A model generated the notes under the pieces. That model did no database searches. It had not been told where the DNA came from and saw nothing but the letters and a program-made list of their open reading frames with translations. A DNA stretch of 64,000 nucleotides from a virus. Positions 1,415-59,611 of this stretch are shown piece after piece. The stretch's first letter is position 1. Each line of letters begins with the position of its first letter. Both the position numbers and the translations under genes were made by a program. The stretch is from the UHGV virus genome UHGV-0275551; one strand, written 5' to 3'.

Positions 1415-1786
1415 TTATTTTTTAAGAGTCGCTACAGCAGAGAACGTTGGTTTGTTATCTGTCTGTTGTTGACCACCATTATCAGGAGTCTTCTTAGTGT
1501 CTGCTGCAAGTGCTTTCATCTCACCTGCTGAGTGAGTAAAGATAGTTTTACCTACCTCAATCATGCTCTTGATGGTTACGTCGTCTGTGTTTAACCCGAA
1601 CTCTGCAAGCTTAGCAGCATCCCTTGTAACAATCGCTTCAAATAACTTTGCAGCAAACTCAGCAGAGTTGTCAATGGTCAGTTGAGCTTTTACAAGTGAG
1701 CTTTTGTTGCGAGAGCCTTTTGGTCTTCCAGATGGGTTTCCAGATTGGCCTTTTTTAAACTGGCCTTTGTTTGTTCTGTTTTTCAT
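1415..1786 (-). CDS. hypothetical basic protein (KGQSGNPSGRPKGSRNK motif)
   Basis: 123-aa ORF from track. Confidence 0.55.
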   Translation of the reverse strand: MKNRTNKGQFKKGQSGNPSGRPKGSRNKSSLVKAQLTIDNSAEFAAKLFEAIVTRDAAKLAEFGLNTDDVTIKSMIEVGKTIFTHSAGEMKALAADTKKTPDNGGQQQTDNKPTFSAVATLKK

Positions 1787-8864: not shown

Positions 8865-9413
8865 ATGGAAAAAGATAACTTAAAAGACGTTGAAGGTAAC
8901 TATCTAGTCCTTGACTGGAAGGATGTTCGGGAAGCACTCTCCGAAGAAAATCTTGACTGGTTCGAACAAATTATCTTTGCAGTACGGCATAACCGAGAAG
9001 TTGAAAATGGTAAAGAGCCACTTGAAGGAATCTTTGTAGAAAGGTCTTATCCGTTCTATGAAGACACTTTGCAGAAAGTTAAGATGTACTTTAAACAGAA
9101 GAACCGTAAAGTGGTCACTATGGTGTCTCTTGGTGGACAGAGTATGTCTGTGATGGAAGATATCAACCCTAAGAGACCGAGTAAAGGTGTTTGTATAAAA
9201 ATCACAGGACATGAAGAGTATATCTCAGTGGATGACTTTAGTGCATTCTGTAATGGGTCTTGTGTCTTTAATGGTTTTCACTATGATATCCGAGTATACC
9301 CAATCAAGGGAGATGATATCATGATGCAGATATTCGATAACAACAACGGATTCACTCATTTTTATCAGACAACTAAGTCATCCCTTAAAACAGTTCTGGA
9401 AACACTGATTTAA
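8865..9413 (+). CDS. hypothetical protein
   Basis: Track start TTG 8820; first ATG at 8865 after previous stop. Confidence 0.5.
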   Translation: MEKDNLKDVEGNYLVLDWKDVREALSEENLDWFEQIIFAVRHNREVENGKEPLEGIFVERSYPFYEDTLQKVKMYFKQKNRKVVTMVSLGGQSMSVMEDINPKRPSKGVCIKITGHEEYISVDDFSAFCNGSCVFNGFHYDIRVYPIKGDDIMMQIFDNNNGFTHFYQTTKSSLKTVLETLI

Positions 9414-9423
9414 AATATCTTAA

Positions 9424-9455
9424 GAGCCTCCTTAATCGGGGGCTTTTTAATTTTT
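9424..9455 (+). terminator. rho-independent terminator ending the plus-strand block
   Basis: AGCCUCC-uuaauc-GGGGGCU (one G-U pair) followed by UUUUUAAUUUUU. Confidence 0.6.
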
Positions 9456-10104
9456 ATAAAATTTTATCGGTTGTCCCAACCTCTGGGTCACCATCATATG
9501 TGAATAAAATATCTATCCTTCTTAACAACCTCCTTAGTCTTACTCTCTATATAGTTATATAGTACTATATAGTATCTTAGTAACTATCTAGTGGTCTTAA
9601 TAGCCCCCCTGTATAAGCCTTCTAACTAGCCCTTTAATAAGCCCTCTAAACACTCTTCTAACAAGCCTTCTTAACAACCTATACAATCACCTTAACCATC
9701 TCTCTATACCCTCTTAGAAGCTCCTATACACCTCTTAATCTCTATGTCAGCTATGATACCCTCTATAGATGTTCACTAGGTACTACTAAGCCTCTATATA
9801 GACTGTTTTAACAAACTTAACAGGAATATCTTCACAGACCTTATCTCACAAGGTCTAACACGGTACTAACAAGGTATCTTATAAGCCTGTTTCTACCTGT
9901 ATTTTTAAAAGACTGTATAGGTAATTATTCAGAATTTTAAAATTTTTATAAAATAAGACTATCAAGTCATTTTTTAGGGTCTTTGAAGGAACTCAAAAAT
10001 ATCTGTAGAAGATGTATATCTGCTTGGTAGCCCTTAACAACTCCCTTACAAGTACTTTGCAAAATTTTAAAATATCCTTAACAATCTCTTAACAGTTCTC
10101 ACAA

Positions 10105-10176
10105 GCTCTTAACAACTCTTCAAAGCTCTTAACAACTCTTCAAAGCTCTTAACAACTCTTCAAAGCTCTTAACAGA
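10105..10176. repeat. perfect 20-bp tandem repeat (GCTCTTAACAACTCTTCAAA) x3 plus a partial fourth copy
   Basis: Read directly at 10105-10124, 10125-10144, 10145-10164. Confidence 0.9.
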
Positions 10177-11058
10177 TTCTTAACAGAACTAACAAGGATG
10201 TAACAGTTTCTTAACAGTTGATACATAGGCTTTACAGAATCTTAACAGATGACTAACAAGAGCTAACAAGTTAATTTTTAAGAGTTATTTTGTAGGGATA
10301 ATTAACAAGTTCCTAACAAGTGTTTAATCTTTTTAACAAGCTATTAACATGGTCACTATCTCTTTTCTTATCGTTCCCTTTCCCTCTTAGTGATTCTCTA
10401 AATAGCCCTCTTAAAAGCTCTCTATAGCTCCTTGTAAGCTCTTTTAAGTCTCTTCCTAGTAATTACACCCCAACTATACAGACACCTCTTTATAGGGCTT
10501 TACAGAGGCTTTAAAGGCTATGCTAAAGACTCTTACAAGGCTTTTACGTGGTCTTAACAGAGATTTAACAAGGGGCTAACAAGTCTCTAACAAGTGCCTT
10601 AAAAGCATAACTATGTAGGGATTGTTAAGAAATTGTTAAGAAAATGTTAAGGGGGCTAGCATTTACGTAACTTTATAGCCTCTTTTACGTAACTTTTGAG
10701 TAACTTTATAGCCCCTATAACATACTTTAAAGGAACTACCAAGCCCTTTTTAGTAGTTCACAAGAATACTAACGAGATGATAAAGCTTACACCCTTATAA
10801 GATTCTTCTAAGGCTCTGGGAAGCTCTATAAAGGGCTTTTTAGAGTGGGTTAATATGATTGCTTAAGTTAGGTTGATAAGGCTGTTATAGAGCGTTATAG
10901 AGCGTTTAAGGGGTTGCCCTTCCCTTTCGGGTTATGGGCTTATATTTAAGTTGATTTGATAAAAGGTTATAGAGTAGACTATAGAGTTATTGCTTTTAAG
11001 GTCTGATAAGATTCTGGAAAGGGAAGGGAAAGGGTTGTATAAGGATTTGATAGACGTA

Positions 11059-11105
11059 AAAAAGCCCCATTTAAGGGGCTGTAAAGGTATCTGGGGCTAT
11101 TTAGC
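11059..11105 (-). terminator. terminator hairpins ending the minus-strand small-gene cluster
   Basis: On minus strand AGCCCC-uuaaau-GGGGCU followed by UUUUUU; second hairpin GGGGC-tattta-GCCCC adjacent. Confidence 0.6.
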
Positions 11106-11118
11106 CCCGTTGCGTCGA

Positions 11119-11367
11119 TTAGTTGTAGCCTTGTTTGCTGTAGTATAGAGAGACAATCAAGTCACCCCAATAATGGTAGTGAGATTCCTCGTTTATGGCT
11201 TCTTTTACGGCATCTTTCCAGAAGTCATCAGTAGGGTTATAATCTGGTATCACCTGCTGAATCAGCATTTTGATAAGGTCAAAGGTGTTATCTGTTCCAC
11301 CGATATCGAATTTTGCATCAAGTTTGTGGCAGCCATAAGCATTAACAGTTACGCGGATAGTTGACAT
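11119..11367 (-). CDS. hypothetical protein
   Basis: 82-aa ORF immediately downstream of a type-A cassette. Confidence 0.55.
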   Translation of the reverse strand: MSTIRVTVNAYGCHKLDAKFDIGGTDNTFDLIKMLIQQVIPDYNPTDDFWKDAVKEAINEESHYHYWGDLIVSLYYSKQGYN

Positions 11368-11434
11368 AATTTAGATTCTCCAGTTTAGGACTTTGTTTAG
11401 TGGGAAGGTCATTCCCTCCCCGTTGATTAGTAAT
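11368..11434 (-). promoter_or_regulatory. type-A promoter/leader cassette
   Basis: TTGCAA-N17-TAAATT, leader hairpin (GGGGAGGGAATGACCTTCCCC family), SD, then ATG. Confidence 0.6.
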
Positions 11435-11698
11435 TTACTGCATATTGGCGTAGGTTGCAAGCCTTTTTTCGTTGTATTTTGTCAGAATTTCACAAGATAG
11501 AACATCGTACATTGTAACCGCTTTGCTTTTGTCGAGGTCAAAAAAGCCAAATGCTTTACCATCTTTGAATCCGACAACTTCGTAAGATTCTTTAATGATT
11601 TCACCATTGAACAAATCACTTTCGATACGGTGAAACAACGCTACGTCTTCTTTGTTAGTTGCAATCTGCAATAGTGTGGTTAATTCTACGTGTTCCAT
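11435..11698 (-). CDS. hypothetical protein
   Basis: Track ORF runs in-frame through the cassette; likely start is the ATG right after the conserved SD (MEHVELTT...). Confidence 0.55.
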   Translation of the reverse strand: MEHVELTTLLQIATNKEDVALFHRIESDLFNGEIIKESYEVVGFKDGKAFGFFDLDKSKAVTMYDVLSCEILTKYNEKRLATYANMQ

Positions 11699-11800
11699 TT
11701 TTGAATCTCCTAGTTTAAGGACTTTACTTAGTGGGAAGGTTAATCCCTCCCCGTTGATTGACAATTTACAGACTTTTGATTGTCTCGTCAATATCTTTTT
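11699..11800 (-). promoter_or_regulatory. type-A promoter/leader cassette
   Basis: TTGACG-N17-TAAATT; leader hairpin; SD TAGGAG. Confidence 0.6.
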
Positions 11801-12296
11801 CAATATCTTTTAAAGTTTTTTCTAAGTTCTTGATATTGAAGGATAAGCCTTCACCGAGAGTCTTAGAATAACCGCTAGGACGTAAATCATAAAGGCAAAT
11901 TTGTTCTACATTGGAGAGGTTGACCATTTCACCGCTTACATCATAAGCTATTGATACGGTGTTTTCAGGGGCTTTATAGAACTTGTTAAGATTCTTGATA
12001 GAACGTTCATAAGCCATTTTATAACCATTTAAAAGGTCTTTAACGTGGTTGCGAACGTTTTTACACTCATCTAAGTAAATACCTAAGAATAGCGGTAACA
12101 GTTCTGCTACAGCTTGCATAAAGTGAGATACTACAACAGTAGAAACATTACGACGATGTATATAATAAGCCCCGTTTTCTGATTTAGTGATAGTTGCAAA
12201 GTGTACACCGTTGCAACGAAATTCGAAGGTATCTTTAACGGGTTTAGTCATAACGTTAGATGAGCGAATGTAGTTGATAGCTTGAAACTTGTTCAT
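11766..12296 (-). CDS. hypothetical protein
   Basis: 176-aa ORF starting right after a type-A cassette. Confidence 0.6.
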   Translation of the reverse strand: MNKFQAINYIRSSNVMTKPVKDTFEFRCNGVHFATITKSENGAYYIHRRNVSTVVVSHFMQAVAELLPLFLGIYLDECKNVRNHVKDLLNGYKMAYERSIKNLNKFYKAPENTVSIAYDVSGEMVNLSNVEQICLYDLRPSGYSKTLGEGLSFNIKNLEKTLKDIEKDIDETIKSL

Positions 12297-12400
12297 TTTG
12301 AATCTCCTAGTTTAAGGACTTTACTTAGTGGGGAAGGTCATTCCCTCCCCGTTGATTAGTACTATACTTGTTTTGATTTGCCTTTGCAAGCAATTTTTAA
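12297..12400 (-). promoter_or_regulatory. type-A promoter/leader cassette
   Basis: TTGCAA-N17-TATAGT; leader hairpin; SD. Confidence 0.55.
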
Positions 12401-12516
12401 GTTTATCTATAAAGAATCTATTAAGTGAATCCCTTTTAGATAACCCCCTCGAACAAAGTTACCAATGTCAATGGGTATTGTCAACACTTTTTTAAAAGTT
12501 TTTTGTAAGTTATTGA

Positions 12517-12858
12517 TTAACTTATGAATATTTTTTCAGGCTTTACATAGCTGATACGCTGACTTTTTAGCAGGTCATCCCAGATTAAAGCGGCAATATG
12601 TGCATAACCGGATTCACGTAAAAGCTTCATTGTTTTACTTCTCGTTTCAAAACGGCTTGCGTAGTATTCACTGTTCAAGGTCGTTTTATTCCCTTCGTTA
12701 TCTGTATGGATGATTTGCATCACTTGAAAGGGGCTTACACCCTCGCCTTTGTTCCACTGTTCAAAGTATTTTAGGCACTGCATAGGTGACATCTTATCAC
12801 TTACTTGAGTTGACCAAGATGAGCCAGCTTTATCGGTAATTACGGTTACATAAGCCAT
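12517..12858 (-). CDS. hypothetical protein
   Basis: 113-aa ORF after a type-B cassette. Confidence 0.6.
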   Translation of the reverse strand: MAYVTVITDKAGSSWSTQVSDKMSPMQCLKYFEQWNKGEGVSPFQVMQIIHTDNEGNKTTLNSEYYASRFETRSKTMKLLRESGYAHIAALIWDDLLKSQRISYVKPEKIFIS

Positions 12859-12943
12859 TTTAGAATCTCCAGTTTAGGATTTAGTGGTAAAGCTCTTTAT
12901 CTGGGGCTTACTATACAGACTAATAAGCCCCATGTAAAGTACT
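12859..12943 (-). promoter_or_regulatory. type-B promoter cassette
   Basis: TTTACA-N17-TATAGT with inverted repeat GGGGCTTA/TAAGCCCC flanking the -10; conserved leader; SD GGAG. Confidence 0.6.
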
Positions 12944-13192
12944 TTAAGCGTCTTTATATTCTATCTCTGTGCACTCACCTTTTACTAGCTCAAAGGTCCA
13001 AATAATTCGTTTATACTCAATCACTACTACAGTAACAAGGTCAGTCCTCTTCTCATTGGTTTTAAAGTCTATTGTGTGGGTATACTCATAACTAGTCTTA
13101 TCCTTAATTTCCCCGTAGCGTCTACACTCTTTATAGACTTCATCCATTAAGCCATTGCTAACCATGTTTTTTAGTTGAGTTTTAGTATACAT
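12944..13192 (-). CDS. hypothetical protein
   Basis: 82-aa ORF after a type-A cassette. Confidence 0.55.
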   Translation of the reverse strand: MYTKTQLKNMVSNGLMDEVYKECRRYGEIKDKTSYEYTHTIDFKTNEKRTDLVTVVVIEYKRIIWTFELVKGECTEIEYKDA

Positions 13193-13285
13193 TTTTTGGA
13201 ATCTCCTAGTTTAAGGACTTTACTTAGTGGGGAAGGTCATTCCCTCCCCGTTGATTGATAATTTACAGACTTTTATCAGGCTTGT
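13193..13285 (-). promoter_or_regulatory. type-A promoter/leader cassette
   Basis: TAGACA-N17-TAAATT; leader hairpin; SD. Confidence 0.55.
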
Positions 13286-13519
13286 CTAGTCTTTTTCAAT
13301 GATAATTTCATATTGACCATCGACACTGTCGAAATAGATTCCTTCGTCATCTTCTGTCTTAAAGTAACATTGTATATCATCACTGGCGGGGTAGTCTTGT
13401 CTTGCTATCTGGCAAACTTGAATAGCATTTTCTTTACTTCCTGTAAACTCTTCAAGCCCTTTAAAGTCACATGAATGGCCGTTACAAATGGAAAGGATGA
13501 GATAAATGGTTGTAAGCAT
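13286..13519 (-). CDS. hypothetical protein
   Basis: 77-aa ORF; preceded by hairpin CCCCT-gtaa-AGGGG plus U-run rather than a typed cassette. Confidence 0.5.
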   Translation of the reverse strand: MLTTIYLILSICNGHSCDFKGLEEFTGSKENAIQVCQIARQDYPASDDIQCYFKTEDDEGIYFDSVDGQYEIIIEKD

Positions 13520-13585
13520 GATTTAAGCCCTCTAAAAGCCCCTGTAAGGGGTTAATCAGTGTTTATAAGGTGAATGTATAGGTTT

Positions 13586-14128
13586 TTAGAAAAAGACCTT
13601 TAAATCACTCTCTACAATGTTTTCTGTCAGTGTATCCATGATGTCACAAAAAACCTGAATACTGTCGGATTGTTGGATACTTTTAGCAAGTAGCTCCAAT
13701 GTTTCATCAAGATAATTTAAATTTGGGTTATCCAGTGAAGGGAGACAAAAAGGTGAATACATAGCGTTGAACTCTGTTGTATAGACCTTTTTAATCCAAT
13801 TTACATCAAAGTACTCTGTAAAGCTTGCTATATTTGACACGTTATCACAAGAATAATCATCATTTAGCTCATCCTCTGGAATGTCAAGTTCTAAGATAAC
13901 AATATTTTGAGTTTTCATCTGAAAAGCTGCCGTGATAGTGGCATTTCCTAGAGCTTGCTGGATACCTTCCGATGCTATCTCTTCCTCATCATCACCATAG
14001 AGTTTATTTTCTGGGTACACGTAAAAATTGCCGTCCATATCCGAACAATTCCATACACCTGATGGTTTATCACCGTTATTAATCAGGTTGATAAAGTTTT
14101 CTTGAGTAGTACCGTGAAAGCATTTCAT
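13586..14128 (-). CDS. hypothetical protein
   Basis: 180-aa ORF after a type-B cassette. Confidence 0.6.
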   Translation of the reverse strand: MKCFHGTTQENFINLINNGDKPSGVWNCSDMDGNFYVYPENKLYGDDEEEIASEGIQQALGNATITAAFQMKTQNIVILELDIPEDELNDDYSCDNVSNIASFTEYFDVNWIKKVYTTEFNAMYSPFCLPSLDNPNLNYLDETLELLAKSIQQSDSIQVFCDIMDTLTENIVESDLKVFF

Positions 14129-14221
14129 TTTGAATCTCCTAGTTTAAGGATTTAGTGGTAAAGCTCTTTATCTGGGGCTTACTTTATCGAACTATAAGCC
14201 CCTTGTAAAGTACTTTATCAG
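14129..14221 (-). promoter_or_regulatory. type-B promoter cassette
   Basis: TTTACA-N17-TAAAGT; inverted repeat GGGGCTTA/TAAGCCCC; SD. Confidence 0.6.
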
Positions 14222-14419
14222 TTAATTTTTGACAACTTTTAAAACTGCAAGATAACCTAAGCAATAAGAATCACCGAAGAGAGTTCTACCCATGAAAGAA
14301 TCATCTTTGATATCCTTTGCAGTGACTGTTTTTTCTACGCCGTGGGAAAGAACTACATCACCAACTTTAATGTCTTTGATGTGCGTGGTTTCAATGGTTA
14401 AACCGTTGATAATAGCCAT
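14222..14419 (-). CDS. hypothetical protein
   Basis: 65-aa ORF after a type-A cassette. Confidence 0.5.
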   Translation of the reverse strand: MAIINGLTIETTHIKDIKVGDVVLSHGVEKTVTAKDIKDDSFMGRTLFGDSYCLGYLAVLKVVKN

Positions 14420-14520
14420 TTTGAATCTCCTAGTTTAAGGACTTTACTTAGTGGGGAAGGTCATTCCCTCCCCGTTGATGTGTAATTTAATCTATCTAAA
14501 AATCAGTGTCAATAAAATTT
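14420..14520 (-). promoter_or_regulatory. type-A promoter/leader cassette
   Basis: TTGACA-N17-TAAATT; leader hairpin; SD; about 95 nt near-identical to 15284-15372. Confidence 0.65.
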
Positions 14521-14925
14521 TTAGAGTTCTGCATAAATTGCGTCGCAGATGTCACGAAAGTCATGATTTGCCAAATTACGTTGTAACCAAGTGGCAAAGA
14601 AATCAGCGATTGCAAAATTAGCATCATACTCAACAGATAGCCACACTTTCACGGCAAATCTAAACATTTTCAAGTCTAACTCTTTATTCATTACCTTAGA
14701 TTTGCCTAACATGTCGACCATTTCATATTGTGCACCGTCTAGCGTGATACCTGCTGCAACGTCAGCCAATGAGTTTTTTACGTTTTCAACGTCTAAGATA
14801 ACGCTTTGAATCTTTCCGATAATGTTGTGCAATGTTTCATCCGGTGCTGATGATGTAATAACATTGATTCGATTAACGGTTAAACGTGCTTTTAAGATTG
14901 ACAACTCACGATTATTAATAGCCAT
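14521..14925 (-). CDS. hypothetical protein
   Basis: 134-aa ORF after a type-B cassette. Confidence 0.6.
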   Translation of the reverse strand: MAINNRELSILKARLTVNRINVITSSAPDETLHNIIGKIQSVILDVENVKNSLADVAAGITLDGAQYEMVDMLGKSKVMNKELDLKMFRFAVKVWLSVEYDANFAIADFFATWLQRNLANHDFRDICDAIYAEL

Positions 14926-15010
14926 TTTAGAATCTCCAATTTAGGATTGAGTGGTAAAGCTCTTTATCTGGGGCTTACTGTACAGACTTATAAGCCCCCT
15001 GTAAAGTACT
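14926..15010 (-). promoter_or_regulatory. type-B promoter cassette
   Basis: TTTACA-N17-TACAGT; inverted repeat; SD. Confidence 0.6.
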
Positions 15011-15283
15011 TTATACTAAGTGCAATTTTTTACCTTTTACTATAATGTAACTCGATGTGCTATTGCTGCAAACATCCTGATAAATTCTGCGCAAACGTCC
15101 TTCATAGTATACTTTCCAGCTAGTTGGAATCTTTTTGCCGTATCCGGTAGCAGTTTTTTGGAGTCCTGCGAATTGCCAATCTAAGATATGTTGCTCAGCC
15201 TGTAAATCCTCAAAGTGCATCACACCGTCTACATAGTGACGTAGAGTGACATTTAAAGTGAGACCGTTGTTAGTAGTATACAT
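15011..15283 (-). CDS. hypothetical protein
   Basis: 90-aa ORF after a type-A cassette. Confidence 0.55.
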   Translation of the reverse strand: MYTTNNGLTLNVTLRHYVDGVMHFEDLQAEQHILDWQFAGLQKTATGYGKKIPTSWKVYYEGRLRRIYQDVCSNSTSSYIIVKGKKLHLV

Positions 15284-15372
15284 TTTAGAATCTCCTAGTT
15301 TAAGGACTTTATTTAGTAGGGTGGTTATTGCCTCCCCGTTGATGTGTAATTTAATCTATCTAAAAACCAGTG
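15284..15372 (-). promoter_or_regulatory. type-A promoter/leader cassette
   Basis: TTGACA-N17-TAAATT; variant leader hairpin; SD. Confidence 0.65.
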
Positions 15373-15705
15373 TCAACAGTTTTGTTTTCGTTTGCTCAAC
15401 TCTTGAACAATTACAGTATGATAGTCTTTTAAGTCACTAATATTTAAAGCATTTATCAGAGAATTATAATCATCGACTAATTGAAAATCATCTTTGAAAA
15501 TGTCGCTGATTTGATAAGCTCTCGCCCTGAATCTGAAGCTCATTTCTAACCGCTTTAATTGTTCATCGCTCAACCGCTCTAGAAAGCTCATTACAAGGCT
15601 ATTGCTAACCTGTTGTGTGATTGCCTTATTTGCTAGATTATAGGCTTTATATGCCTTATAGAGCGCGAAAATGGCAATGATTGCAGTGATACCAGTCATT
15701 AACAT
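15373..15705 (-). CDS. hypothetical membrane-anchored protein
   Basis: 110-aa ORF, hydrophobic N-terminus, SD AGGAAG; overlaps upstream gene. Confidence 0.55.
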   Translation of the reverse strand: MLMTGITAIIAIFALYKAYKAYNLANKAITQQVSNSLVMSFLERLSDEQLKRLEMSFRFRARAYQISDIFKDDFQLVDDYNSLINALNISDLKDYHTVIVQELSKRKQNC

Positions 15706-15995
15706 GGTGCTTCCTCTTTACGTGACACTTTGCCATTTACAGTTATCTCATAAGAATCTAGTAAATCGCTTTTAGATTTGACAGGACTTTTAAGAGTATC
15801 ATCATAGATATTGACTTGCAATACAGGTTTTTTATACTCCCTGCAACTATTCCATAAGCAAATCACTACACGACGACCTTTTATTTTGCCGTGTAACCAT
15901 TCCATAACATCATGGCTATTTCTTGATGTTTCAATGAAATCAATTTTGTTGAGTAATTTGCTTAGATTTTCACGAACTTTATTTGATAATTTCAT
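15699..15995 (-). CDS. hypothetical protein
   Basis: 98-aa ORF after a type-B cassette. Confidence 0.55.
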   Translation of the reverse strand: MKLSNKVRENLSKLLNKIDFIETSRNSHDVMEWLHGKIKGRRVVICLWNSCREYKKPVLQVNIYDDTLKSPVKSKSDLLDSYEITVNGKVSRKEEAPC

Positions 15996-16083
15996 TTTTG
16001 AATCTCCAGTTTAGGATTGAGTGGTAAAGCTCTTTATCTGGGGCTTAAGATACCAACTTTTAAGCCCCTTGTAAAGTACTTTA
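15996..16083 (-). promoter_or_regulatory. type-B promoter cassette
   Basis: TTTACA-N17-TATCTT; inverted repeat; SD. Confidence 0.55.
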
Positions 16084-16373
16084 TCAGTTAATTTTCAGCT
16101 TTGCATAACCTCTCATTGTACGAATTGGAGATGTTAAGGCTACGCGTCTAATATATGCCTTTTTTGTGTATACATTTGTCTTTCCGATAGTGTTTACACA
16201 TGTAAAAAGATTTATTGGTGAATTTTTTAACTTCAACTGTTTATCAGCCTTCACACCCCATCTTACAGCAGATTGTTTTCCGTTGTCAACCACTTTCCCG
16301 CCTAACTTTTCGCTATGATGCGAGCGTCATCACGAGTTTTTACAGGAATTACAACGTTTTTGATAGTAGCCAT
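16084..16373 (-). pseudogene. small ORF interrupted by an apparent -1 frameshift in a 4-nt homopolymer (possible sequencing error or pseudogene)
   Basis: ATG at 16373 after the cassette SD opens a 23-codon frame ending at TAG 16302-16304; the 69-aa track ORF 16084-16293 is open in the -1 frame back to 16326; one extra A in the run at 16307-16310 would fuse them. Confidence 0.4.
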
Positions 16374-16461
16374 TTTTGAATCTCCAATTTAGGATTTAGT
16401 GGTAAAGCTCTTTATCTGGGGCTTACTTTATCGAACTATAAGCCCCTTGTAAAGTACTTTA
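16374..16461 (-). promoter_or_regulatory. type-B promoter cassette
   Basis: Identical in its core to the 14129-14221 copy. Confidence 0.6.
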
Positions 16462-16842
16462 TCAGTTAATTTTGAAGATTGTTACATAACCATCACTACC
16501 GATGATTTGAGACACTCCAGCTTTTTCTACTTGATAGCCCATATTTTCAAGATGATAAACAGCATCATCGTAACCATATGCGCCACCCTGATAACGTCTC
16601 TTATCGCATCTTATCAGGTTTTTACCACGTCCAGCAAGTGCATGTAAAATGGCTTTTTCGCTTGAAAGAGTACCATCTAGCATTGTCGCCGTGTAATGGT
16701 TGATTTTATTCCCATTGATATCATACTTAAAATTAAACGAGTGAACAACAATAACGTTACCTTTAAAATTCTCATCAAGTGACTTCTCCAGTGCGTTGCG
16801 AAAGTTGTCTTTGTTGATGAATTTAGGTGCACGGTATGCCAT
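16462..16842 (-). CDS. hypothetical protein
   Basis: 126-aa ORF after a type-A cassette. Confidence 0.6.
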   Translation of the reverse strand: MAYRAPKFINKDNFRNALEKSLDENFKGNVIVVHSFNFKYDINGNKINHYTATMLDGTLSSEKAILHALAGRGKNLIRCDKRRYQGGAYGYDDAVYHLENMGYQVEKAGVSQIIGSDGYVTIFKIN

Positions 16843-16960
16843 TTTGAATCTCCAGTTTAGGACTTTATTTAGTGGGGAAGGTCATTACCTCCCCGTTGAT
16901 GCAAATACTAGATAACCCCGTTCAAAGAGTCAAGAAAAATTTTAAAAATATTTTTGGAAA
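16843..16960 (-). promoter_or_regulatory. type-A promoter/leader cassette (first of the cluster)
   Basis: TTGACT-N17-TAGTAT; leader hairpin; SD. Confidence 0.55.
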
Positions 16961-17049
16961 AACTGTAATGAAACGTGCGCACACGACTACCACAAAACAG
17001 AACACAAATCAAGAATTATTTTTCAACCCGCTACAAATTTTTCTCTTGA

Positions 17050-17085
17050 CTTTTGGGGAGAGGTGGAGTAAGAGGGGGAGAGGGG
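17050..17085. repeat. purine-rich GA tract
   Basis: GGGGAGAGGTGGAGTAAGAGGGGGAGAGGGGTTGG. Confidence 0.8.
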
Positions 17086-17104
17086 TTGGTCTGGCTCTCT
17101 ATAA

Positions 17105-17295
17105 AAACCTACCTGCACGATTCTAAAATGATTTTTCTTGCCCGACCTGAGCGGGGTCTGCACGTTTTGAAAATGAAAAAGCTCTTTGGAGATTACCTGC
17201 ACAGTTTGAAAATGAATTTTCTCTTTGGAGTTCAAAATTCTCTCTACAGATTTCTCTACAGAACTCTACCTGCACAATCCTGAAATGAAAAAGCC
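17105..17295. repeat. array of four ~25-bp direct repeats (CCTGCAC-N5-TTTGAAAATGA family) plus duplicated CTCTTTGGAG
   Basis: Copies at about 17109, 17157, 17193 and 17267; lies upstream of the small-gene cluster on the minus strand. Confidence 0.7.
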
Positions 17296-17340
17296 CTCCT
17301 TACCTGAAAAATTTACCAGATAAGGAAGGCTTAGTCTATT
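17283..17340 (-). terminator. rho-independent terminator after the macro-domain gene
   Basis: Minus-strand imperfect hairpin GCCTTCCTTATCTGG / CAGGTAAGGAGGGC followed by CTTTTTCATTTC. Confidence 0.55.
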
Positions 17341-17361
17341 GTAAATATTATACAGAGTTTC

Positions 17362-18147
17362 TTAGTTCTTTGCGTCTAAGAAGGTAACTTCTGGTGAAGA
17401 GAAGACCGTCTCGATATCCTCATCAGTTCTTGCATAAATATATGTATCTGCATCACTGCCAAATGTTACGGCTATCCTGTGATTGCTCTTCGACAGGTGG
17501 GTAACTAGAGCGTTACTTAGAGACATCTTCTCAACCGGAGGGTTACTTTGATGTATCTTACCTTTTCTTCGTCTGAAGAGGGTAACTGTATCATCTTTGA
17601 ACGTTACTACACCTGCAAAGTATTCTGGTTCACAGTAGTTATTCCAACCTGAGCGTAACTTGTGGTACATCTCTCCTTCGTAGACATACAGATAAACATC
17701 TACACTCTTCATCACCTGATTAATGATAACTGTGACGGCTTGAGGGTCAAGTCCACCGATACCTGCACCAATCATAGGTAAACCAACCTTCTTCAACTGA
17801 TTAACTTCACAGTATCTGTTAAGCTGTTTCAAAGATGACTCTAAAGCACTGTATCGGGCATCTTTACCAGTCTTAAGCTGAGTGTAAAGGTTAGCTATAC
17901 GACCTTGTTTTAAACGTGCTACAGAGAAATTACCCAGTAAATTTTCACAAGGTTTGTGTCCTATACCACCTGCATATAGATAAACTTCTGTATCGGTCTC
18001 ATATGCTTTTGGGTAAAGTTTAGAAATCTTGTCAGCGATACCTGCACCCATTAAGTTCATACAGTTGCAACCGTGACCGATGATGTCAAACTTACCTTTA
18101 TCAAATGCGGCAAAGATATCACCATTAATTATTTTTACAATACCCAT
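17362..18147 (-). CDS. macro-domain protein (TARG1/DarG-like fold) with C-terminal extension
   Basis: N-terminus GDIF...GHGCNCMNLMGAGIA and later LPMIGAGIGGLDP match macro-domain signature positions; SD GGGAGAG. Confidence 0.55.
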   Translation of the reverse strand: MGIVKIINGDIFAAFDKGKFDIIGHGCNCMNLMGAGIADKISKLYPKAYETDTEVYLYAGGIGHKPCENLLGNFSVARLKQGRIANLYTQLKTGKDARYSALESSLKQLNRYCEVNQLKKVGLPMIGAGIGGLDPQAVTVIINQVMKSVDVYLYVYEGEMYHKLRSGWNNYCEPEYFAGVVTFKDDTVTLFRRRKGKIHQSNPPVEKMSLSNALVTHLSKSNHRIAVTFGSDADTYIYARTDEDIETVFSSPEVTFLDAKN

Positions 18148-18348
18148 TTAACATCTCTCCCAAGATTCTTTGTCTTCTGAAGGTTTTACACGTTGTCCTT
18201 CGTGGTCTACCCAGATGCACCCACAACCTTCACAGATTACTGGCATTGCATAACCAGCTTTAAAGTCATCTTCAGTGATAAGACCTTTTAAGTCACCTGT
18301 ATCACGTCCGAACATTTCAATAGAACAGTCTTTGCAGAAGTCAGCCAT
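18148..18348 (-). CDS. small Cys-rich zinc-ribbon-like protein
   Basis: 66 aa with CxxC...CxxC. Confidence 0.5.
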   Translation of the reverse strand: MADFCKDCSIEMFGRDTGDLKGLITEDDFKAGYAMPVICEGCGCIWVDHEGQRVKPSEDKESWERC

Positions 18349-18360
18349 ATAACATACACC

Positions 18361-18588
18361 TTATAGTTCAGTTTCTCGTAATTCTTTACCTTCATCATAG
18401 AAGCATTTATAGAATGTATCTATAGAAATTCTGGCAAAGGTAAGGTCTTCAAAGTATTCTTCTGGAGTTATACCTGTAAAACTAAAACCATCAAGATTGT
18501 AAAACGGTATTACTGTGTCATCGCTCATGAAAACACATGCAGATACGACTTCTCCAGTATCTTTGTCAATTATTTCTAGAGCTTTCAT
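18361..18588 (-). CDS. hypothetical protein
   Basis: 75-aa ORF. Confidence 0.5.
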   Translation of the reverse strand: MKALEIIDKDTGEVVSACVFMSDDTVIPFYNLDGFSFTGITPEEYFEDLTFARISIDTFYKCFYDEGKELRETEL

Positions 18589-18700
18589 AGTTTACCTTCT
18601 CAGTTAGCTCATATAAATCAACATGCTCAATACTATCAATGTTGATATCAATCTTTTTGAAGCGTTCTATCACTTCGTTGTCAGTCATCCATATCAGACA

Positions 18701-18889
18701 CTAATGATTCTGAATGGATTCTTCAAGAAGGTCAACACAATCTTTAAAAGTTTTTGTATCACTTCTTGTTCCTATCATTGCGATTGTTCCATATAGCCAC
18801 TTACCATTGCCATAAGATACTTGTGCTACGCCAACTTCTTTGCCTTTCTCGTAGTAAACAGCTACAAAGTCTCTTCCGTTAATCTGCAT
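18701..18889 (-). CDS. hypothetical protein
   Basis: 62-aa ORF. Confidence 0.4.
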   Translation of the reverse strand: MQINGRDFVAVYYEKGKEVGVAQVSYGNGKWLYGTIAMIGTRSDTKTFKDCVDLLEESIQNH

Positions 18890-18891
18890 AG

Positions 18892-19164
18892 TTACTTCCT
18901 CGTTTTGAGAACTGCTAAGATTTCTTTAGAGTCTGGTAAGAACCATGTGTAGTGATTCTCTTTGATTTCTGGATGAGTGTCAACCTTTATTTTGCACTCT
19001 TTACCAACATGCTTAAGCTGTGCTGTGATACCTTGCATAAAGATGTGACACATTACATTATCCATAATCGTAGGTAAGAAATCAATCCTCATGTAAGTAT
19101 CTTTCGGTCTCGGTAGAAGTAAGTAACCTTCTGTGTAGAAAGTTTCATCATTACTTTGTGTCAT
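18892..19164 (-). CDS. hypothetical protein
   Basis: 90-aa ORF. Confidence 0.5.
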   Translation of the reverse strand: MTQSNDETFYTEGYLLLPRPKDTYMRIDFLPTIMDNVMCHIFMQGITAQLKHVGKECKIKVDTHPEIKENHYTWFLPDSKEILAVLKTRK

Positions 19165-19430
19165 TACTGCTTATTCCCTAATAAAATCATATCAATAAGG
19201 TTATTAGCTTTGATTGTGCACTGGTAAAATCCATCACGATAGAACTCAAGGGCTGCTGCCACATCGCTGCCAGTATTACCTTTGACAGTGAATCTTGACT
19301 CTTCTTGAGTGTACTTGTCACCCTCACTTACTTGGGAGTTTTTGAATGTACTGTTCACTTTGTTCGTTGAACACCCTGACATAATTATCAGTAACACAAA
19401 CATTATAAAACTCTGGCTTAGTTTTTTCAT
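19164..19430 (-). CDS. putative o-spanin (outer-membrane lipoprotein)
   Basis: Signal peptide with lipobox (IIMSGC); starts inside the previous gene in another frame. Confidence 0.5.
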   Translation of the reverse strand: MKKLSQSFIMFVLLIIMSGCSTNKVNSTFKNSQVSEGDKYTQEESRFTVKGNTGSDVAAALEFYRDGFYQCTIKANNLIDMILLGNKQ

Positions 19431-19671
19431 ATGTTAGTACCTCTTTTGTATGCTTATTCTTAGCAAGCACATCTTTCAAATCATTTTTGTAATTGGTGCT
19501 GAGTGTGGCTAAACCTTCCTGATAAGCATCTTTGGCAACACTTATTAGTTTCTCGTTATTTAGCTCAGTTTCAGCAACTTGGTAGTCTCTGTAAGAGTAT
19601 CCTCCCCAGACACCTGTCCCAACTAAGAAAACAATTATGAAAGTAGCTTGACAGAACTCTTTAAATGTCAT
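19324..19671 (-). CDS. putative i-spanin (N-terminal TM, periplasmic helical domain)
   Basis: N-terminal TM segment; overlapped by the lipoprotein ORF in the manner of overlapped spanin pairs. Confidence 0.5.
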   Translation of the reverse strand: MTFKEFCQATFIIVFLVGTGVWGGYSYRDYQVAETELNNEKLISVAKDAYQEGLATLSTNYKNDLKDVLAKNKHTKEVLTYEKTKPEFYNVCVTDNYVRVFNEQSEQYIQKLPSK

Positions 19672-19685
19672 TTAACAATCTCCTG

Positions 19686-19713
19686 AAATGAAAAAGGCTC
19701 CCGAAGGAGCCTG
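19686..19713 (-). terminator. rho-independent terminator
   Basis: Minus-strand GGCTCC-uucg-GGAGCC followed by UUUUUCAUUU. Confidence 0.65.
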
Positions 19714-19723
19714 TATCTTAACC

Positions 19724-20188
19724 TTAACCGAGGACTTTAGCAAGGATATTTGCAGCCATCGAAGAAGCTTTTGCAGCAGCAACTACGCCAGCTTTGACAG
19801 TGCTATCCTTAATAGCAGATACCGTTGCAGCATCAGTAAAGAGATAAGTGATTGTTTTGGAACCACTTGTAAAGGAAAGCATAAGAGTAGTTTCCAGATT
19901 GAAAGAGCGATACGGAGCACCTTCTTTAACGATACCTTCAGCACCTAACTCTGAAGCCTTACCCATATCATAGATAGTCATCAGGTTTTCTTTGTGTGCA
20001 GTCGTTGAACCAACACCTTTTACGTGCTTCTTAACGTTCAACAATGCACGATATTCACGAATGCTACCATCAGCTTTTACATTAACAGCACGGAAAATTT
20101 TACCTTCAAAGTTACCTTGAATCATTTTACGAACTACTTCAGATTTGTTTGCCGTATCGTCCAGTGCTACCGTAATGATATTGTTCAT
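19724..20188 (-). CDS. hypothetical protein
   Basis: Track start is TTG 20203; ATG at 20188 has SD GAGAGAAG. Confidence 0.5.
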   Translation of the reverse strand: MNNIITVALDDTANKSEVVRKMIQGNFEGKIFRAVNVKADGSIREYRALLNVKKHVKGVGSTTAHKENLMTIYDMGKASELGAEGIVKEGAPYRSFNLETTLMLSFTSGSKTITYLFTDAATVSAIKDSTVKAGVVAAAKASSMAANILAKVLG

Positions 20189-20199
20189 AAGTTCTTCTC

Positions 20200-20895
20200 T
20201 CAATGTTTAACTAACATGGTTTTAATGTGTGGAAGGATTCTGTTTACCTTCTGAACATTCTTCTCTGTATCTTCTATAAAACATACTATATCAAAGTAAG
20301 GCAGAATGCAAGACTGAATCATCCTCACTTTCAAACTTTCTGCACTTATAGAGTTAGTCCCAAAACCACGCATAAAAAGCATGTAATCATGCTCTATGTA
20401 ATGCCTTAAAAACATCTCAGTAGGTATTCTCTGAGATTCACCTCTTGCTGTCAATAGTCCAATGGCAGCGTGATTAGAAATTGCATCAATAATATTGAAA
20501 ACATACGTTGGTTTTGCACTTACAGAGTCAAGCAAATTGGTGTACTGTGAAAATGACCCATCAATCAGTTCCGTTGAGCAATCTTCGTGATTAAAATTTG
20601 TCAGAACACCATCAATATCTGCTAAGATGAGGTTACCTTTTTCTACAAGGTCTTTATTGACTATGACTAAACTGTCACGTCTTACACCTATAGTTTGTCC
20701 GGTCTCTTTGTCCACAACGTTCACAATTGGTTCTGATGTGTGGAACTCTTCAAGTGAACATACAACTTCTCTTGCAGTATCTTCAAAATCCCTGCACTGT
20801 TCTGGAGTCCATACACAGGAATCAAGACCTAACTCATGAGGATGCAAGTCATAAGCGTGGCACAGGACTTCATCAGACTTTCTTAATTTTTTCAT
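20200..20895 (-). CDS. hypothetical protein with HAD-like phosphatase motif (DIDGV)
   Basis: 231-aa ORF; C-terminal half has ILADIDGVLTNF; function tentative. Confidence 0.35.
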   Translation of the reverse strand: MKKLRKSDEVLCHAYDLHPHELGLDSCVWTPEQCRDFEDTAREVVCSLEEFHTSEPIVNVVDKETGQTIGVRRDSLVIVNKDLVEKGNLILADIDGVLTNFNHEDCSTELIDGSFSQYTNLLDSVSAKPTYVFNIIDAISNHAAIGLLTARGESQRIPTEMFLRHYIEHDYMLFMRGFGTNSISAESLKVRMIQSCILPYFDIVCFIEDTEKNVQKVNRILPHIKTMLVKH

Positions 20896-21421
20896 GATTT
20901 ACCTTAGAAAGGTTTGTTGCAAATTCACATTGAGCGATAACTTTCATATTGTTATAGACATCTTGAGAGTATTTCTTAGCTTTAGGGATTTTGTACGAAT
21001 ACCCAGCATTATATGATGCTAAAACTTTTTGTAAAGTCTTCTTTGACTTTGGCTGACCATGCACCTTTGTCCAAAACTCAAGCTCTTTGTGCGTTTCCTT
21101 CGCAGCATAGTCAAAATCTTTTAAGAGTTTCTTTTTAGCCACACTAGGACTAATTTTGTTACGCTTTACAACAGTCTTCAAGTGATTCTGGAAGATACCA
21201 TAGTCATGGGTCTTTTTATTTTCTACCTTCAGACCTAACTCTGACTCTTGTAAGGCTATAGCTGCTAGAGTGATACCCCAACCTTTACCCATGTTATTCT
21301 CACCATACTGGTAAGCTTTTAACATGTTCACTTTTTGACTAATTGATAGCTCTGGGCAGTCAACTGCATAAGATAAGTGTGCTGTAAACATTAAGCACAA
21401 ACCTAGAATCAATTTCTTCAT
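20873..21421 (-). CDS. secreted lytic-transglycosylase-like protein (SLT-like motifs)
   Basis: Signal peptide; QESELG, DYGIFQNH and SYNAGYSY resemble SLT motifs; SD AGGAG. Confidence 0.45.
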   Translation of the reverse strand: MKKLILGLCLMFTAHLSYAVDCPELSISQKVNMLKAYQYGENNMGKGWGITLAAIALQESELGLKVENKKTHDYGIFQNHLKTVVKRNKISPSVAKKKLLKDFDYAAKETHKELEFWTKVHGQPKSKKTLQKVLASYNAGYSYKIPKAKKYSQDVYNNMKVIAQCEFATNLSKVNHEKIKKV

Positions 21422-21478
21422 TGGTTCTCCTGTTTAGTTTATCGTGACAACAATTATACAGCACTCTGCACAAAATAC

Positions 21479-21510
21479 AAATAAAAAAGGCCGCCGAAGC
21501 AGCCTTTTAA
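21479..21510 (-). terminator. rho-independent terminator
   Basis: Minus-strand AAGGCUGC-uucg-GCGGCCUU followed by UUUUUUAUUUG. Confidence 0.65.
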
Positions 21511-21521
21511 GAAATTACTTA

Positions 21522-22631
21522 TTAGATTTCACGTTTACGTTGAGAGATGAGTTCACCAGCAGTGCCAACGATGACATGCAAAGCTTCAGTCTTACCGTCC
21601 CATGCTTCCAGCACTTTACGTTGATTATCAACGATTGCTGCAACTTCATAACGAGAGGAACGCATCTTCATATCATTGTAATCAGTTGGAACAGATACAA
21701 CATCTCGTGGATGTACGCGAACCTTCAGGATTGTATCACCTGAGAAGCAACGAACATAATCCCAAGCACCAACATGAAGACCTTGAGAGCAAGTTACGTT
21801 ACGGTTATTATCAACCATCCAACGTGGCATTTCTACAATGTTACCCAAATCATTAGGCACTTTGTAGGTGTGAGAGTCAACCAACTTGCCTTCACGAGTA
21901 GAGACTTTCTTCCAACCAATGATGTAGCCTTCTTCATCAATTTCAACATCAAGGTGAGATACAAATCCCCAAAGTTGTTCTACAGAATCTTTAGATGGGT
22001 TTTCCATCAGTTTTTCGAAGAACATTACAAGTCGTTCAAAACCTTTATCGCCAGTTTTCATCATGTGAAGAATACGGTCAACCAGAGTAGAACGCATCTC
22101 AACAGCACCGTAGAATAGCTTGTCGCCTTTGATTGTGATAGCACCCTGAGTGAAGTTTTCGATAGACTTACGAATGTTCATCAGTTCAAATGCTTTCTTG
22201 AACTCACCTTTCACAACATGAACTACAATCTCTTGATAGTTCGGATGAGTAGACTCAACAATTTCAGATTCTGAACCATAAGTCATAATTACAGAATCAC
22301 CAGTAATCATGTACTCAATCTTGTCATCTTTCTGCATAGCTTCGTGCAGTTTATTTACTGGAGCTTTCTGTACAGTGTCTTTAACGACCTTTTCAACTGG
22401 TTTGCCAGCTTTCTTTTTAAAAGTCTTAGCAACTTGTTTCAAAGTCTTCGTAGCTGGTGTAGAAGTTGCCTTCTTCTTGCCTTTTAAGGTTGCTTCATGA
22501 CGCTCTACAGCACGACCAACTGAACGGGTTGAAGTATTGAACTTCTGTGCAATAGCTGTTTTAGTCAGCTTACCTTCTTTAACCAGTTTGTAAATTTCTG
22601 CGTCAATCTGTGCTTTAGTTTTAGTAGTCAT
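21522..22631 (-). CDS. rIIB: rIIB-like protein (N-terminal HTH, Lys-rich linker)
   Basis: Immediately downstream of the rIIA-like gene; size and adjacency fit rIIA-rIIB pairs; HTH-like segment near N-terminus. Confidence 0.35.
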   Translation of the reverse strand: MTTKTKAQIDAEIYKLVKEGKLTKTAIAQKFNTSTRSVGRAVERHEATLKGKKKATSTPATKTLKQVAKTFKKKAGKPVEKVVKDTVQKAPVNKLHEAMQKDDKIEYMITGDSVIMTYGSESEIVESTHPNYQEIVVHVVKGEFKKAFELMNIRKSIENFTQGAITIKGDKLFYGAVEMRSTLVDRILHMMKTGDKGFERLVMFFEKLMENPSKDSVEQLWGFVSHLDVEIDEEGYIIGWKKVSTREGKLVDSHTYKVPNDLGNIVEMPRWMVDNNRNVTCSQGLHVGAWDYVRCFSGDTILKVRVHPRDVVSVPTDYNDMKMRSSRYEVAAIVDNQRKVLEAWDGKTEALHVIVGTAGELISQRKREI

Positions 22632-22675
22632 CTTATTACTCTCTCTTGTTAGTTAATCAATCAATTTGTGAGGCT

Positions 22676-22705
22676 ATTCTAAGGGGCTTCAAAGCCCCTT
22701 GTCAA
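22676..22705 (-). promoter_or_regulatory. near-consensus sigma70-type promoter with a GC hairpin as spacer
   Basis: Minus strand TTGACA-N18-TAGAAT; spacer AGGGGCTTTGAAGCCCC is a perfect inverted repeat. Confidence 0.5.
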
Positions 22706-22710
22706 ACACT

Positions 22711-53646: not shown

Positions 53647-53952
53647 CATCACTTAAGAGTCTTCTAAGAGGGTTTTTAAGTGATGTCCGGTAGGGTAAGG
53701 TCGGGTTAAGTATTGTTCGGTACGGTAGGGTAAAGTACGGTACGGTAAGGTAAAGCAGGGTATGGGTAGTTAGTCTCAGCTACATTAAAATGAGACTTAC
53801 ATCACTTAAGAGTCTTTAAATTACACTCGATAAAGTATCTCATAGGGTTTTTAAGTGATGTTTGGCAAGGCAAGGTGCGGCCCGGTCGGGTAAGGTGCGG
53901 TGATGTATGGTAAAGTATGGGTGGATGGTAGTAGCCACGTTAAAAATCTACC
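53647..53952 (+). other. composite structured G/T-rich repeat element, copy 1 (two sub-units)
   Basis: 10-bp inverted repeats CATCACTTAA/TTAAGTGATG, GGT-rich tracts, terminal hairpins AGTCTCA...TGAGACT and GGTAG...CTACC. Confidence 0.7.
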
Positions 53953-55087: not shown

Positions 55088-55354
55088 CTCATTAAAAGGT
55101 CTTTAAACAAGGTCTTTTAATGAGGTAGTATACGGTATGGTGGGGTAGGGTGAGGTCTGGTTTGGTAAGGTAGGGTCTGGTATGGGTAGTTAGTCTCAGC
55201 TACATTAAAATGAGACTTACCTTTTTAAAAGGTCTTTAAGAGGGTCTTTTAATGAGGTAGGGTAGAGTTCTGTTGAGTACAGCGATGTGTGGTTGGGTCT
55301 TGTAAGGTTTGGTTTGGTATGGAAGGATGGCAGTAGCCTTATAAAAAATCTGCC
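55088..55354 (+). other. composite structured G/T-rich repeat element, copy 2 (two sub-units)
   Basis: Inverted repeat CTCATTAAAAG/CTTTTAATGAG, GGT-rich tracts, identical 37-mer with copy 1, terminal hairpin GGCAG...CTGCC. Confidence 0.7.
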
Positions 55355-59532: not shown

Positions 59533-59611
59533 TTAATCACCTCATCAGCCAAGATGGTGAGAATACCCATAAAGAATATTAACACCATCTTAACAATCAG
59601 TCAACAAGGGA

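Follow-up and report, generated by a model that had tools for sequence, protein, structure and literature searches.

What function, if any, can be served by three perfect tandem copies of a 20-bp unit placed in a gene-free junction of a phage genome? This question is raised by positions 10105–10176 of the virus genome UHGV-0275551, a stretch of 64,000 nucleotides referred to here as the window, which is a Felix O1-like myovirus (Felixounavirus): over the first 25 kb it shares 95.9% identity with E. coli O157 typing phage 12, and about 276 records of Felixounavirus type match it. The initial annotation considered the repeat as an iteron-like array, with a period of about two helical turns suitable for binding of a protein on one face of DNA, and named an XRE-like protein of the same genome as a candidate for this binding. 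According to the data described below, the triple belongs to a longer array of phased TTAACA sites, which is located in the region homologous to the direct terminal repeat (DTR) of related phages, and we lean towards the explanation that this array is a platform for terminase binding at the concatemer junction, in which the triple itself appeared as a recent expansion.

The repeat proper is exact. The unit GCTCTTAACAACTCTTCAAA starts at 10105, 10125 and 10145 with zero mismatches and, according to an exact string search, has no other occurrence in the window on either strand. Ten nucleotides of a fourth copy, GCTCTTAACA, follow at 10165–10174, after which the sequence diverges, and the dinucleotide GA at 10175–10176, which was included in the initially annotated interval, already mismatches the unit. 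That this is the strongest repeat signal of the window, as was claimed, was confirmed by Tandem Repeats Finder, which gave it a score of 148 (10086–10174, period 20, 4.4 copies, 94% matches) against 81 or less for other loci. The expectation for three exact adjacent 20-mers, calculated as about 4^-40 per position multiplied by 64,000 positions, is about 5e-20, and their presence therefore cannot be ascribed to chance. The non-coding setting is also certain: genes of the + strand stop at 9413, convergent genes of the − strand stop at 11119, and the list of open reading frames (ORFs) contains none of at least 40 aa within 9413–10990.

The perfect triple, assumed initially to be a feature worth comparing among isolates, turned out to be peculiar to this genome. 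In the alignment of 27 distinct DTR sequences (GenBank and IMG/VR, with Mooglevirus, Suspvirus and Kolesnikvirus included) only the window has an extra 40 bp, while the other 26 are single-copy, and in seven relatives read directly the corresponding segment is ...CAAGCTCTTAACAACTCTTCAAAGGTCTTAACAG... with one copy of the unit. A 241-bp query (10020–10260) used in megablast covered 200–201 bp in all 40 matches listed of 192, the probe with the triple repeat found only a single-copy match among 50,697 phage records, and the junction between two copies was found in no phage record, IMG/VR contig or JGI metagenome contig searched. Thus, the comparison of copy numbers revealed no variation among relatives, leaving the window genome as a sole outlier, and the triple appears as a lineage-specific product of slippage that added 40 bp. 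A break of megablast alignments at 10126–10128, observed for wV8-type phages, was considered as a possible record end or terminus and rejected, because the alignment is split there by the 40-bp insertion and has lower identity leftward.

The ancestral arrangement accounts for such an event. In relatives the single 20-bp module, composed of a good site and a half-site, is flanked by two similar modules, so that TCTTAACA sites stand 20 bp apart on both sides and the whole segment is imperfectly 20-bp periodic. Sites repeated at this distance explain the expansion by slipped-strand mispairing or unequal exchange, and replication slippage or unequal exchange between adjacent TCTTAACA sites is its likely cause, as judged from the sequence. 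The perfect triple is, therefore, probably a young and near-neutral polymorphism, which added two sites and has no required copy number.

The place where this expansion occurred is more informative than the expansion. Phage Pr103Blw has an annotated short DTR of 581 bp at its positions 1–581, called with PhageTerm (PMC8303462), and the reverse complement of this segment aligns to window positions 10656..10026. Both ends of the record are identical in ZX4221 (591 bp, 100%), NBEco004 (628 bp, 100%) and GE_vB_7A (about 581 bp, 99.5%), and these ends map to 10026/10028 and 10656/10650 of the window, so that all four Felixounavirus records have the same fixed, non-permuted boundaries. The homologous segment is also present at both ends of Erwinia phage vEam_W_25 as a 401-bp terminal duplication, with the left end GTGGCC... 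homologous to window position 10027. The record of this phage (PP079183) ends with AGATCGGAA, i.e. with the first nine bases of an Illumina adapter placed directly after the 401-bp repeat, and this untrimmed adapter marks a genuine physical end of DNA. A DTR of 608 bp was demonstrated for UAB_Phi87 by Bal31 digestion and run-off sequencing (PMC4837284), and Kolesnikviruses were assigned to short-DTR phages by PhageTerm (PMC11984208).

Virion DNA of this group is linear and has exact short DTRs of about 0.6 kb. By homology, the DTR of the window phage occupies approximately 10026–10656, and since the ends of relatives map to this interval, the triple repeat falls within the DTR, 80–150 bp from its left boundary. 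In the window this repeat is single because assembly collapses the two ends, and the junction thus holds the collapsed terminal repeat together with its unique flanks. In full length the junction is 88–90% conserved in more than 200 Felixounavirus records.

What is reiterated across the DTR is a shorter element than the 20-bp unit. Each unit consists of one good site CTCTTAACAA and one degenerate half-site CTCTTCAAAG, which means that the 20-bp period represents two steps of the real lattice. Approximately 22 sites with the TAACA core were found in the DTR, all but three of them in one orientation. For the junction as a whole this makes 30 sites in the + orientation versus 4 inverted, with a density of 17.6 per kb versus 1.36 per kb elsewhere. 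The sites are gathered in clusters listed in Table 1, the triple forming the densest part of the array, and the distance between neighbours, measured in 27 sequences, was exactly 11 bp in 269 of 554 cases and exactly 20 bp in another 79. With spacings that are mostly 11 or 20 bp, the sites should be exposed on the same side of the helix. Phase coherence of the main cluster in its ancestral form is observed at 10.2–10.5 bp (R 0.85–0.96, with the random 99th percentile of 0.63), and for all 22 sites R is about 0.7 at 10.2–10.4 bp. The 40-bp expansion kept the phase on a lattice of 10.0–10.2 bp and weakened it at 10.5 bp (R changed from 0.85 to 0.57).

Selective preservation of the cores was registered as well: the conservation of core positions is 0.917 versus 0.803 for other positions over the DTR, and 0.909 versus 0.741 for spacers within the array (Mann-Whitney p=6e-13). 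Some further insertions and deletions of the array correspond to entire modules of 11 bp, and in the fourth cluster one such module is present or absent among relatives. Taken together these properties support the notion that the array is a protein-binding platform on one face of the helix, as judged from its sequence. In this respect the initial assumption was right, but the functional lattice has a step of about 10–11 bp with TTAACA as its core, rather than 20 bp. Outside the junction only one phased TTAACA pair was found (59579–59595, TTAACACCATCTTAACA, in a short gap between − strand genes), while about two are expected by chance. A single pair at chance level in 62 kb makes a genome-wide transcription factor unlikely, and a regulatory motif distributed over the genome was rejected, since phased sites are confined to the junction. 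The DTR of this group was known before; no description of the TTAACA array was found in the literature searched, and it appears to be undescribed there.

The same motif is found at the cut sites. The ends of three records are 5'-GGTAGCCCTTAACA... and ...TGTTAAGGGGGC-3', and the right end read inward is GCCCCCTTAACA, which mirrors the left-end GGTAGCCCTTAACA. At both termini, read inward, CCCTTAACA is located 6–8 nt from the end, and TAGC directly follows both cuts. Short motifs reiterated at helical spacing and present next to the cleavage positions (TAACA 6–8 nt inside each boundary) are what is expected of a terminase site. Mirrored CCCTTAACA, though observed with a 2-nt offset and in three records, is suggestive of participation of the motif in end recognition. 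The array begins about 50 bp from the left terminus, and the box TTTGCAAAATTTTAAAATATCC, lying 30 bp inside this terminus and directly upstream of the array, is the most conserved element of the DTR. The boundary box itself (10014–10032) has in Erwinia phages the form GTATATCTGCTTAGTGGCC.

Conservation of this layout extends far beyond close relatives. All four classified genera of Ounavirinae that were examined keep the array, and so does Pectobacterium phage Wc4-1, which retains TTAACA. ORF-free junctions of 1.4–1.7 kb with 21–23 TAACA sites in the same layout were found in Moogle, phiSUSP1 and phiEa104, and in Erwinia phages blastn still detects nothing of the DTR but 10013–10216, i.e. the boundary box and the main cluster. 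The box TTTGCAAAATTTTAAAATATCC is recognisable in phages of Erwinia, Pectobacterium and Hafnia. In Hafnia phage SarahDanielle (MW749010, 8566–10637) the conserved box TTTGCAAAATCTTAAAATATC is retained with one CCCCGTTAACA beside it, and the array is made of 19 copies of TCTTTACA, mostly 10–13 bp apart, which replace TCTTAACA. Across the whole array this is a switch of one base, from TTAACA to TTTACA, and such a switch would result from co-evolution of the sites with a sequence-specific binder.

Searching for such a binder, we considered eight flanking and candidate proteins, among which no Pfam domain was found except DUF5681 and HTH_3, both encoded elsewhere in the genome; the flanking ORFs matched only PHROGs of unknown function. 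The 123-aa DUF5681 protein is our candidate for the small terminase subunit. It is conserved in 297 phage records, essentially all of Ounavirinae, and has no NCBIfam name and no functional PHROG name, being annotated as hypothetical, as DUF5681 or not at all in all 60 phage records listed. Its gene heads the late-gene strand upstream of the Ro60-like gene, the tRNA island and the gene of the large terminase. In the relative TP1 a Ro60-like 'RNA-binding protein' gene and about 26 tRNA genes separate DUF5681 from the large terminase gene; if the DUF5681 protein is the small subunit, the two terminase genes would be separated in an unusual manner.

In unrelated phage contigs (L046 and L050/L051) the DUF5681 gene directly precedes the large terminase gene and overlaps with it, in L055 it is located 2.4 kb upstream of this gene, and in L048 it is followed by a gene whose TerL-sized product has a weak Terminase_6N match. 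Distant DUF5681 genes of the bacterial contig JBGGHF010000009 (L048) and of a JGI contig (L049) adjoin genes of ParB_N/N6_N4 methyltransferase and JetD/SbcC-like (Wadjet-type) proteins, and this neighbourhood looks like a prophage or a defence island. The whole family has an invariant basic arm FKKGQSGNPxGRPKGSxN, and in our reading its GRP core resembles an AT-hook.

Based on these data one can imagine the following sequence of events. In DTR phages such as T7 one copy of the DTR is present per concatemer junction, and the same is assumed here. The oligomeric small subunit, for which the DUF5681 protein with its invariant basic GNPxGRPKG arm is a candidate, would be aligned or wrapped along one face of the phased lattice of about 600 bp. 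The lattice so occupied would mark the junction, allowing the single DTR copy to be recognised in the concatemer, and would place the large subunit at two boundary boxes for the cuts, while the DTR would be duplicated during maturation. Two extra modules of the window phage would then add sites, leaving the boundaries undisturbed, and would probably be near-neutral. A more detailed version, to which we attach only limited belief, assumes a previously undescribed mode of packaging recognition in Ounavirinae. In it a ring-forming DUF5681 small terminase would read about 20 TTAACA sites spaced by about 10.3 bp across the DTR through the AT-hook-like GNPxGRPKG arm, mirrored CCCTTAACA would define both cuts, the sites would co-evolve with the lineage (with TTTACA in place of TTAACA in the Hafnia phage), and the additional 40 bp would represent growth of the lattice by whole modules.

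Several observations weigh against recognition of the array by terminase. The boundaries of the DTR in the window genome are deduced from homology, and the paper on SEP1 (Felixounavirus) derived headful packaging from PhageTerm, in conflict with the DTR reports; in the literature found this was the only dissent. Pairs of TAACA are also present outside the DTR, in its unique left flank (9523–9867), where a pure cut-site model does not need them, and stretches with 80–88% A+T adjoin the array, giving it, as AT-rich DNA beside repeats, the look of a replication origin. The role of the DUF5681 protein as small terminase subunit is suggested by gene neighbourhood only. Even there one of six contexts of its homologues examined has no terminase nearby, and in another (L056) the TerL-sized protein encoded downstream has no Pfam match. 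The AlphaFold2 model of the protein is poor (predicted local distance difference test score 67, predicted template modelling score 0.35), phmmer found no match among PDB sequences, and Foldseek against PDB gave nothing but noise. Finally, the DUF5681 protein of the Pectobacterium phage is more divergent (49% identity) than that of the Hafnia phage (55%), yet the Pectobacterium phage keeps TTAACA, so that divergence of the motif does not simply track divergence of the protein.

Position, phasing and conservation of the sites would fit equally well an array for some other phage or host protein acting at DNA ends, for instance in protection from RecBCD, in organisation of DNA entering or leaving the capsid, or in recombination between DTRs yielding concatemers. 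Arrays of p6 at the genome ends of phi29 and injection-stop repeats of T5 are analogues of this kind. Such a protein would account for the sites reaching into the unique flank outside the DTR, and the motif switch in the Hafnia phage implies a sequence-specific partner. No candidate for it was found, however. When the junction was scanned for Chi, GATC, DnaA boxes and IHF sites, practically nothing was obtained, with no Chi site and no cluster of IHF or DnaA sites. Moreover, CCCTTAACA, facing inward at each of the two cuts, links the motif with cleavage itself. We consider this explanation rather unlikely.

Still less credit can be given to the origin of replication, in which a phage-encoded initiator would bind phased repeats as iterons and melt the AT-rich DNA at 9904–9975 or 10056–10077, with the copy number setting its loading. 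The sites are indeed direct, phased and conserved, as iterons are, AT-rich stretches adjoin them, and the region is transcriptionally insulated by terminators. No gene similar to Rep or another initiator adjoins the array, however, the flanking ORFs having no Pfam domain, and the DnaA boxes and IHF-like matches registered in 1.7 kb amount to one each, the DnaA box being a relaxed one, without any cluster. Neither direct repeats of 17–22 bp in conserved number nor an adjacent initiator gene were thus registered: the 20-bp unit is single-copy in all relatives, and what is conserved is a core of 6 bp repeated on a lattice of 10–11 bp. The GC skew changes at the junction from + to −, as at a terminus, and from − to + near 47–48 kb, although it is confounded by gene orientation. 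The array lies precisely within the DTR with mirroring at both termini, and this location points to end formation or packaging over a classical iteron origin.

An operator array for a regulator controlling a promoter or non-coding RNA of the junction seems very improbable. The XRE-like protein (56037–56336) is a genuine HTH_3 protein (E=5e-10) and weak sigma-70-like matches (9/12 positions) overlap the array. But this domain is generic and nothing ties the protein to the array: no gene starts in or beside it, since this is where the two flanking blocks terminate, and the window's real divergent promoter regions are devoid of phased TAACA pairs. Promoter-like matches (11 versus 6.5 +/- 2.5 in shuffled sequences) are only modestly above expectation and were set aside as evidence of a transcript, and a known RNA family was ruled out by the Rfam scan of 9300–11300 (E<=1), which gave only a sub-threshold Phe_leader match on a terminator hairpin. 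Equally hard to believe is the absence of any function, i.e. slippage-prone low-complexity filler with the triple as an assembly or sequencing artefact: even if the triple is unique to the window sequence and the junction is rich in other short repeats, selective conservation of the cores is seen between genera in which the rest of the junction cannot be aligned, and misassembly is unlikely because the exact structure of 72 bp is shorter than typical reads.

Terminase binding therefore remains the explanation that we prefer, and the features on which it is based are collected in Table 1 together with those delimiting the junction.

Table 1. Features of the gene-free junction, its terminal repeat equivalent and the candidate binding protein (window coordinates).
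Feature	Position	Strand	Basis
ORF-free junction, ~1.7 kb, between convergent gene blocks	9414..11118	.	ORF list
Intrinsic-terminator-like hairpin closing the + strand gene block	9422..9447	+	
Conserved box GTATATCTGCTTGGTAGCC across the left DTR boundary, terminus ~10026–10028	10014..10032	+	invariant or nearly so in 27 sequences
DTR equivalent, 631 bp (591 bp minus the 40-bp expansion)	10026..10656	.	homology to relatives' termini
Predicted end sequences of the window phage: left GGTAGCC..., right = complement of ...AAGGGGGC			homology
AT-rich DTR element TTTGCAAAATTTTAAAATATCC	10056..10077	+	conservation 0.95 in its bin
Main cluster: ten direct TAACA (mostly CTTAACA) sites, spacing 11/20/20/20/20/11/9/11/11 bp	10079..10216	+	
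Three exact GCTCTTAACAACTCTTCAAA copies and a 10-nt partial copy	10105..10176	+	direct reading, string search
40 bp (two units, exact register arbitrary) limited to the window genome	10125..10164	+	27-sequence alignment, Pr103Blw pairwise alignment
Second cluster: three TAACA sites, spacing 11 and 10 bp	10243..10268	+	
Third cluster: four TAACA sites, spacing 11, 20, 11 bp	10303..10349	+	
Fourth cluster: four TAACA sites, spacing exactly 11 bp	10555..10592	+	
Three inverted sites (ATTGTTAAGAA x3, 11-bp period) at the right DTR boundary	10621..10651	-	
Intrinsic-terminator-like hairpin closing the - strand gene block	11063..11080	-	
DUF5681 protein, 123 aa, putative small terminase subunit and array binder	1415..1786	-	Pfam PF18932, E=2.3e-14

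The Felix O1 genome paper, where 'short terminal repeats' were inferred, and the wV8 genome paper do not discuss the junction, the searched part of the Bas63 essentiality preprint gives no result for it, and 'repeat_region' features placed on the homologous junction of phage allfine are unexplained automatic annotations. Outside the DTR the junction of the window contains further families of short repeats, at 9545–9592 and 9613–9680 in the left flank and at 10662–10707 and 10884–10906 in the right one. They include the CTATATAGTA-type (period 10/18), AAGCCTTCTAAC (period 12/24), GTTATAGAGC x2.3 and TTTACGTAACT (period 11/22), which begins 6 bp beyond the right DTR boundary; C/T-rich versions are found left of the DTR and G/A-rich versions right of it. 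The side right of this junction (10128–25000) is 97.5–97.9% identical to wV8, SP22 and typing phages 8 and 11, and left of approximately 10126 the nearest relatives are typing phages 1, 12 and 15 (95–96%), suggesting that mosaic exchange took place in the terminal repeat or close to it.

In the window as a whole, G/T-rich tandem arrays were also listed in the tandem-repeat table at 53688–53769 (CGGTACGGTAAGGTA..., period 5/10/20/25) and 55134–55181 (GGTATGGTGG, period 10/20). The tetranucleotide GATC is absent from all 64 kb, with about 224 copies expected from base composition, CGCG occurs 8 times with 88 expected, and over 20 palindromic hexamers, AGATCT, TGATCA, ATGCAT, CTGCAG and GGATCC among them, are missing. 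This is an extreme avoidance of Dam and restriction sites.

Taken separately, the triple matters little. It is a strain-specific polymorphism of DTR length produced by ordinary slippage, useful at most as an isolate marker, although it shows that the array tolerates extra modules. Phased arrays of short motifs at packaging or end sites of phages are also a known kind of element. The lattice, its mirrored ends and the candidate small terminase offer, however, a testable model of end formation in the whole subfamily, the Felix O1-like members of which are widely used for typing of Salmonella and E. coli, in biocontrol and in therapy. The array with its DTR would be a cis element to be preserved whenever genomes are engineered or rebooted, and the end sequence (GGTAGCCCTTAACA...) may serve for placing the true genome start in many Felixounavirus records opened arbitrarily.

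Among known systems, almost the same geometry is displayed by partition centromeres with tandem repeats of 10–11 or 20 bp, such as parC of R1, parC of pSK41 and stbDR of R388, where units of 11 or 20 bp are bound cooperatively on one face, as may be the case here. They differ in having genes of a centromere-binding protein and NTPase nearby, while no genes of ParM/ParR or StbA type were found beside the window array, and it is not obvious why a virulent phage should need partition. The feature of KhF1-3 annotated as 'direct repeat / possible binding site of StbAB' was examined in this connection and discarded as unrelated, being an 11-bp element inside a gene about 7 kb away. Iterons of lambda ori, P1 oriR and P4 ori/crr share with the window direct, phased and conserved repeats beside AT-rich DNA, but have units of 17–22 bp instead of a 6-bp core on the lattice of 10–11 bp, and the window array has no adjacent initiator gene or DnaA cluster and resides inside the DTR.

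Another comparable element is the junction of T7, for which Dunn and Studier in 1983 and Chung and Hinkle in 1990 are said to have described a 160-bp terminal repeat with adjacent SRL/SRR arrays and pac elements. Common to both are the exact short DTR, present in one copy per concatemer junction, its non-coding nature and arrays of short motifs. The lineage and motifs are unrelated, however, the window phage being a myovirus with a Mu-like portal, and arrays of T7 flank the repeat, while here they are mostly inside it. Terminase sites made of phased short repeats are represented by R sites of lambda cosB, boxes of SPP1 pacL/pacR and 4+3 TGATCA/G hexamers of P1 pac. Multiple short motifs at helical spacing, bipartite organisation and opposite orientation of elements flanking the cut unite them with the window. 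In contrast to these phages, which use cos or headful systems and have one cut region, the window array comprises about 22 sites over the whole repeat, which has two boundaries about 600 bp apart to be cut and is duplicated, with binding of the small subunit being putative. The nearest counterparts are, naturally, DTRs of other Felix O1-like phages (608 bp in UAB_Phi87, 581 bp in Pr103Blw, and those of Kolesnikvirus). The literature found reports their length or existence only, leaving the array, mirrored CCCTTAACA ends and copy-number variants undescribed; in the window genome the DTR is 40 bp longer, while homologous DNA, boundaries, size and flanking genes coincide.

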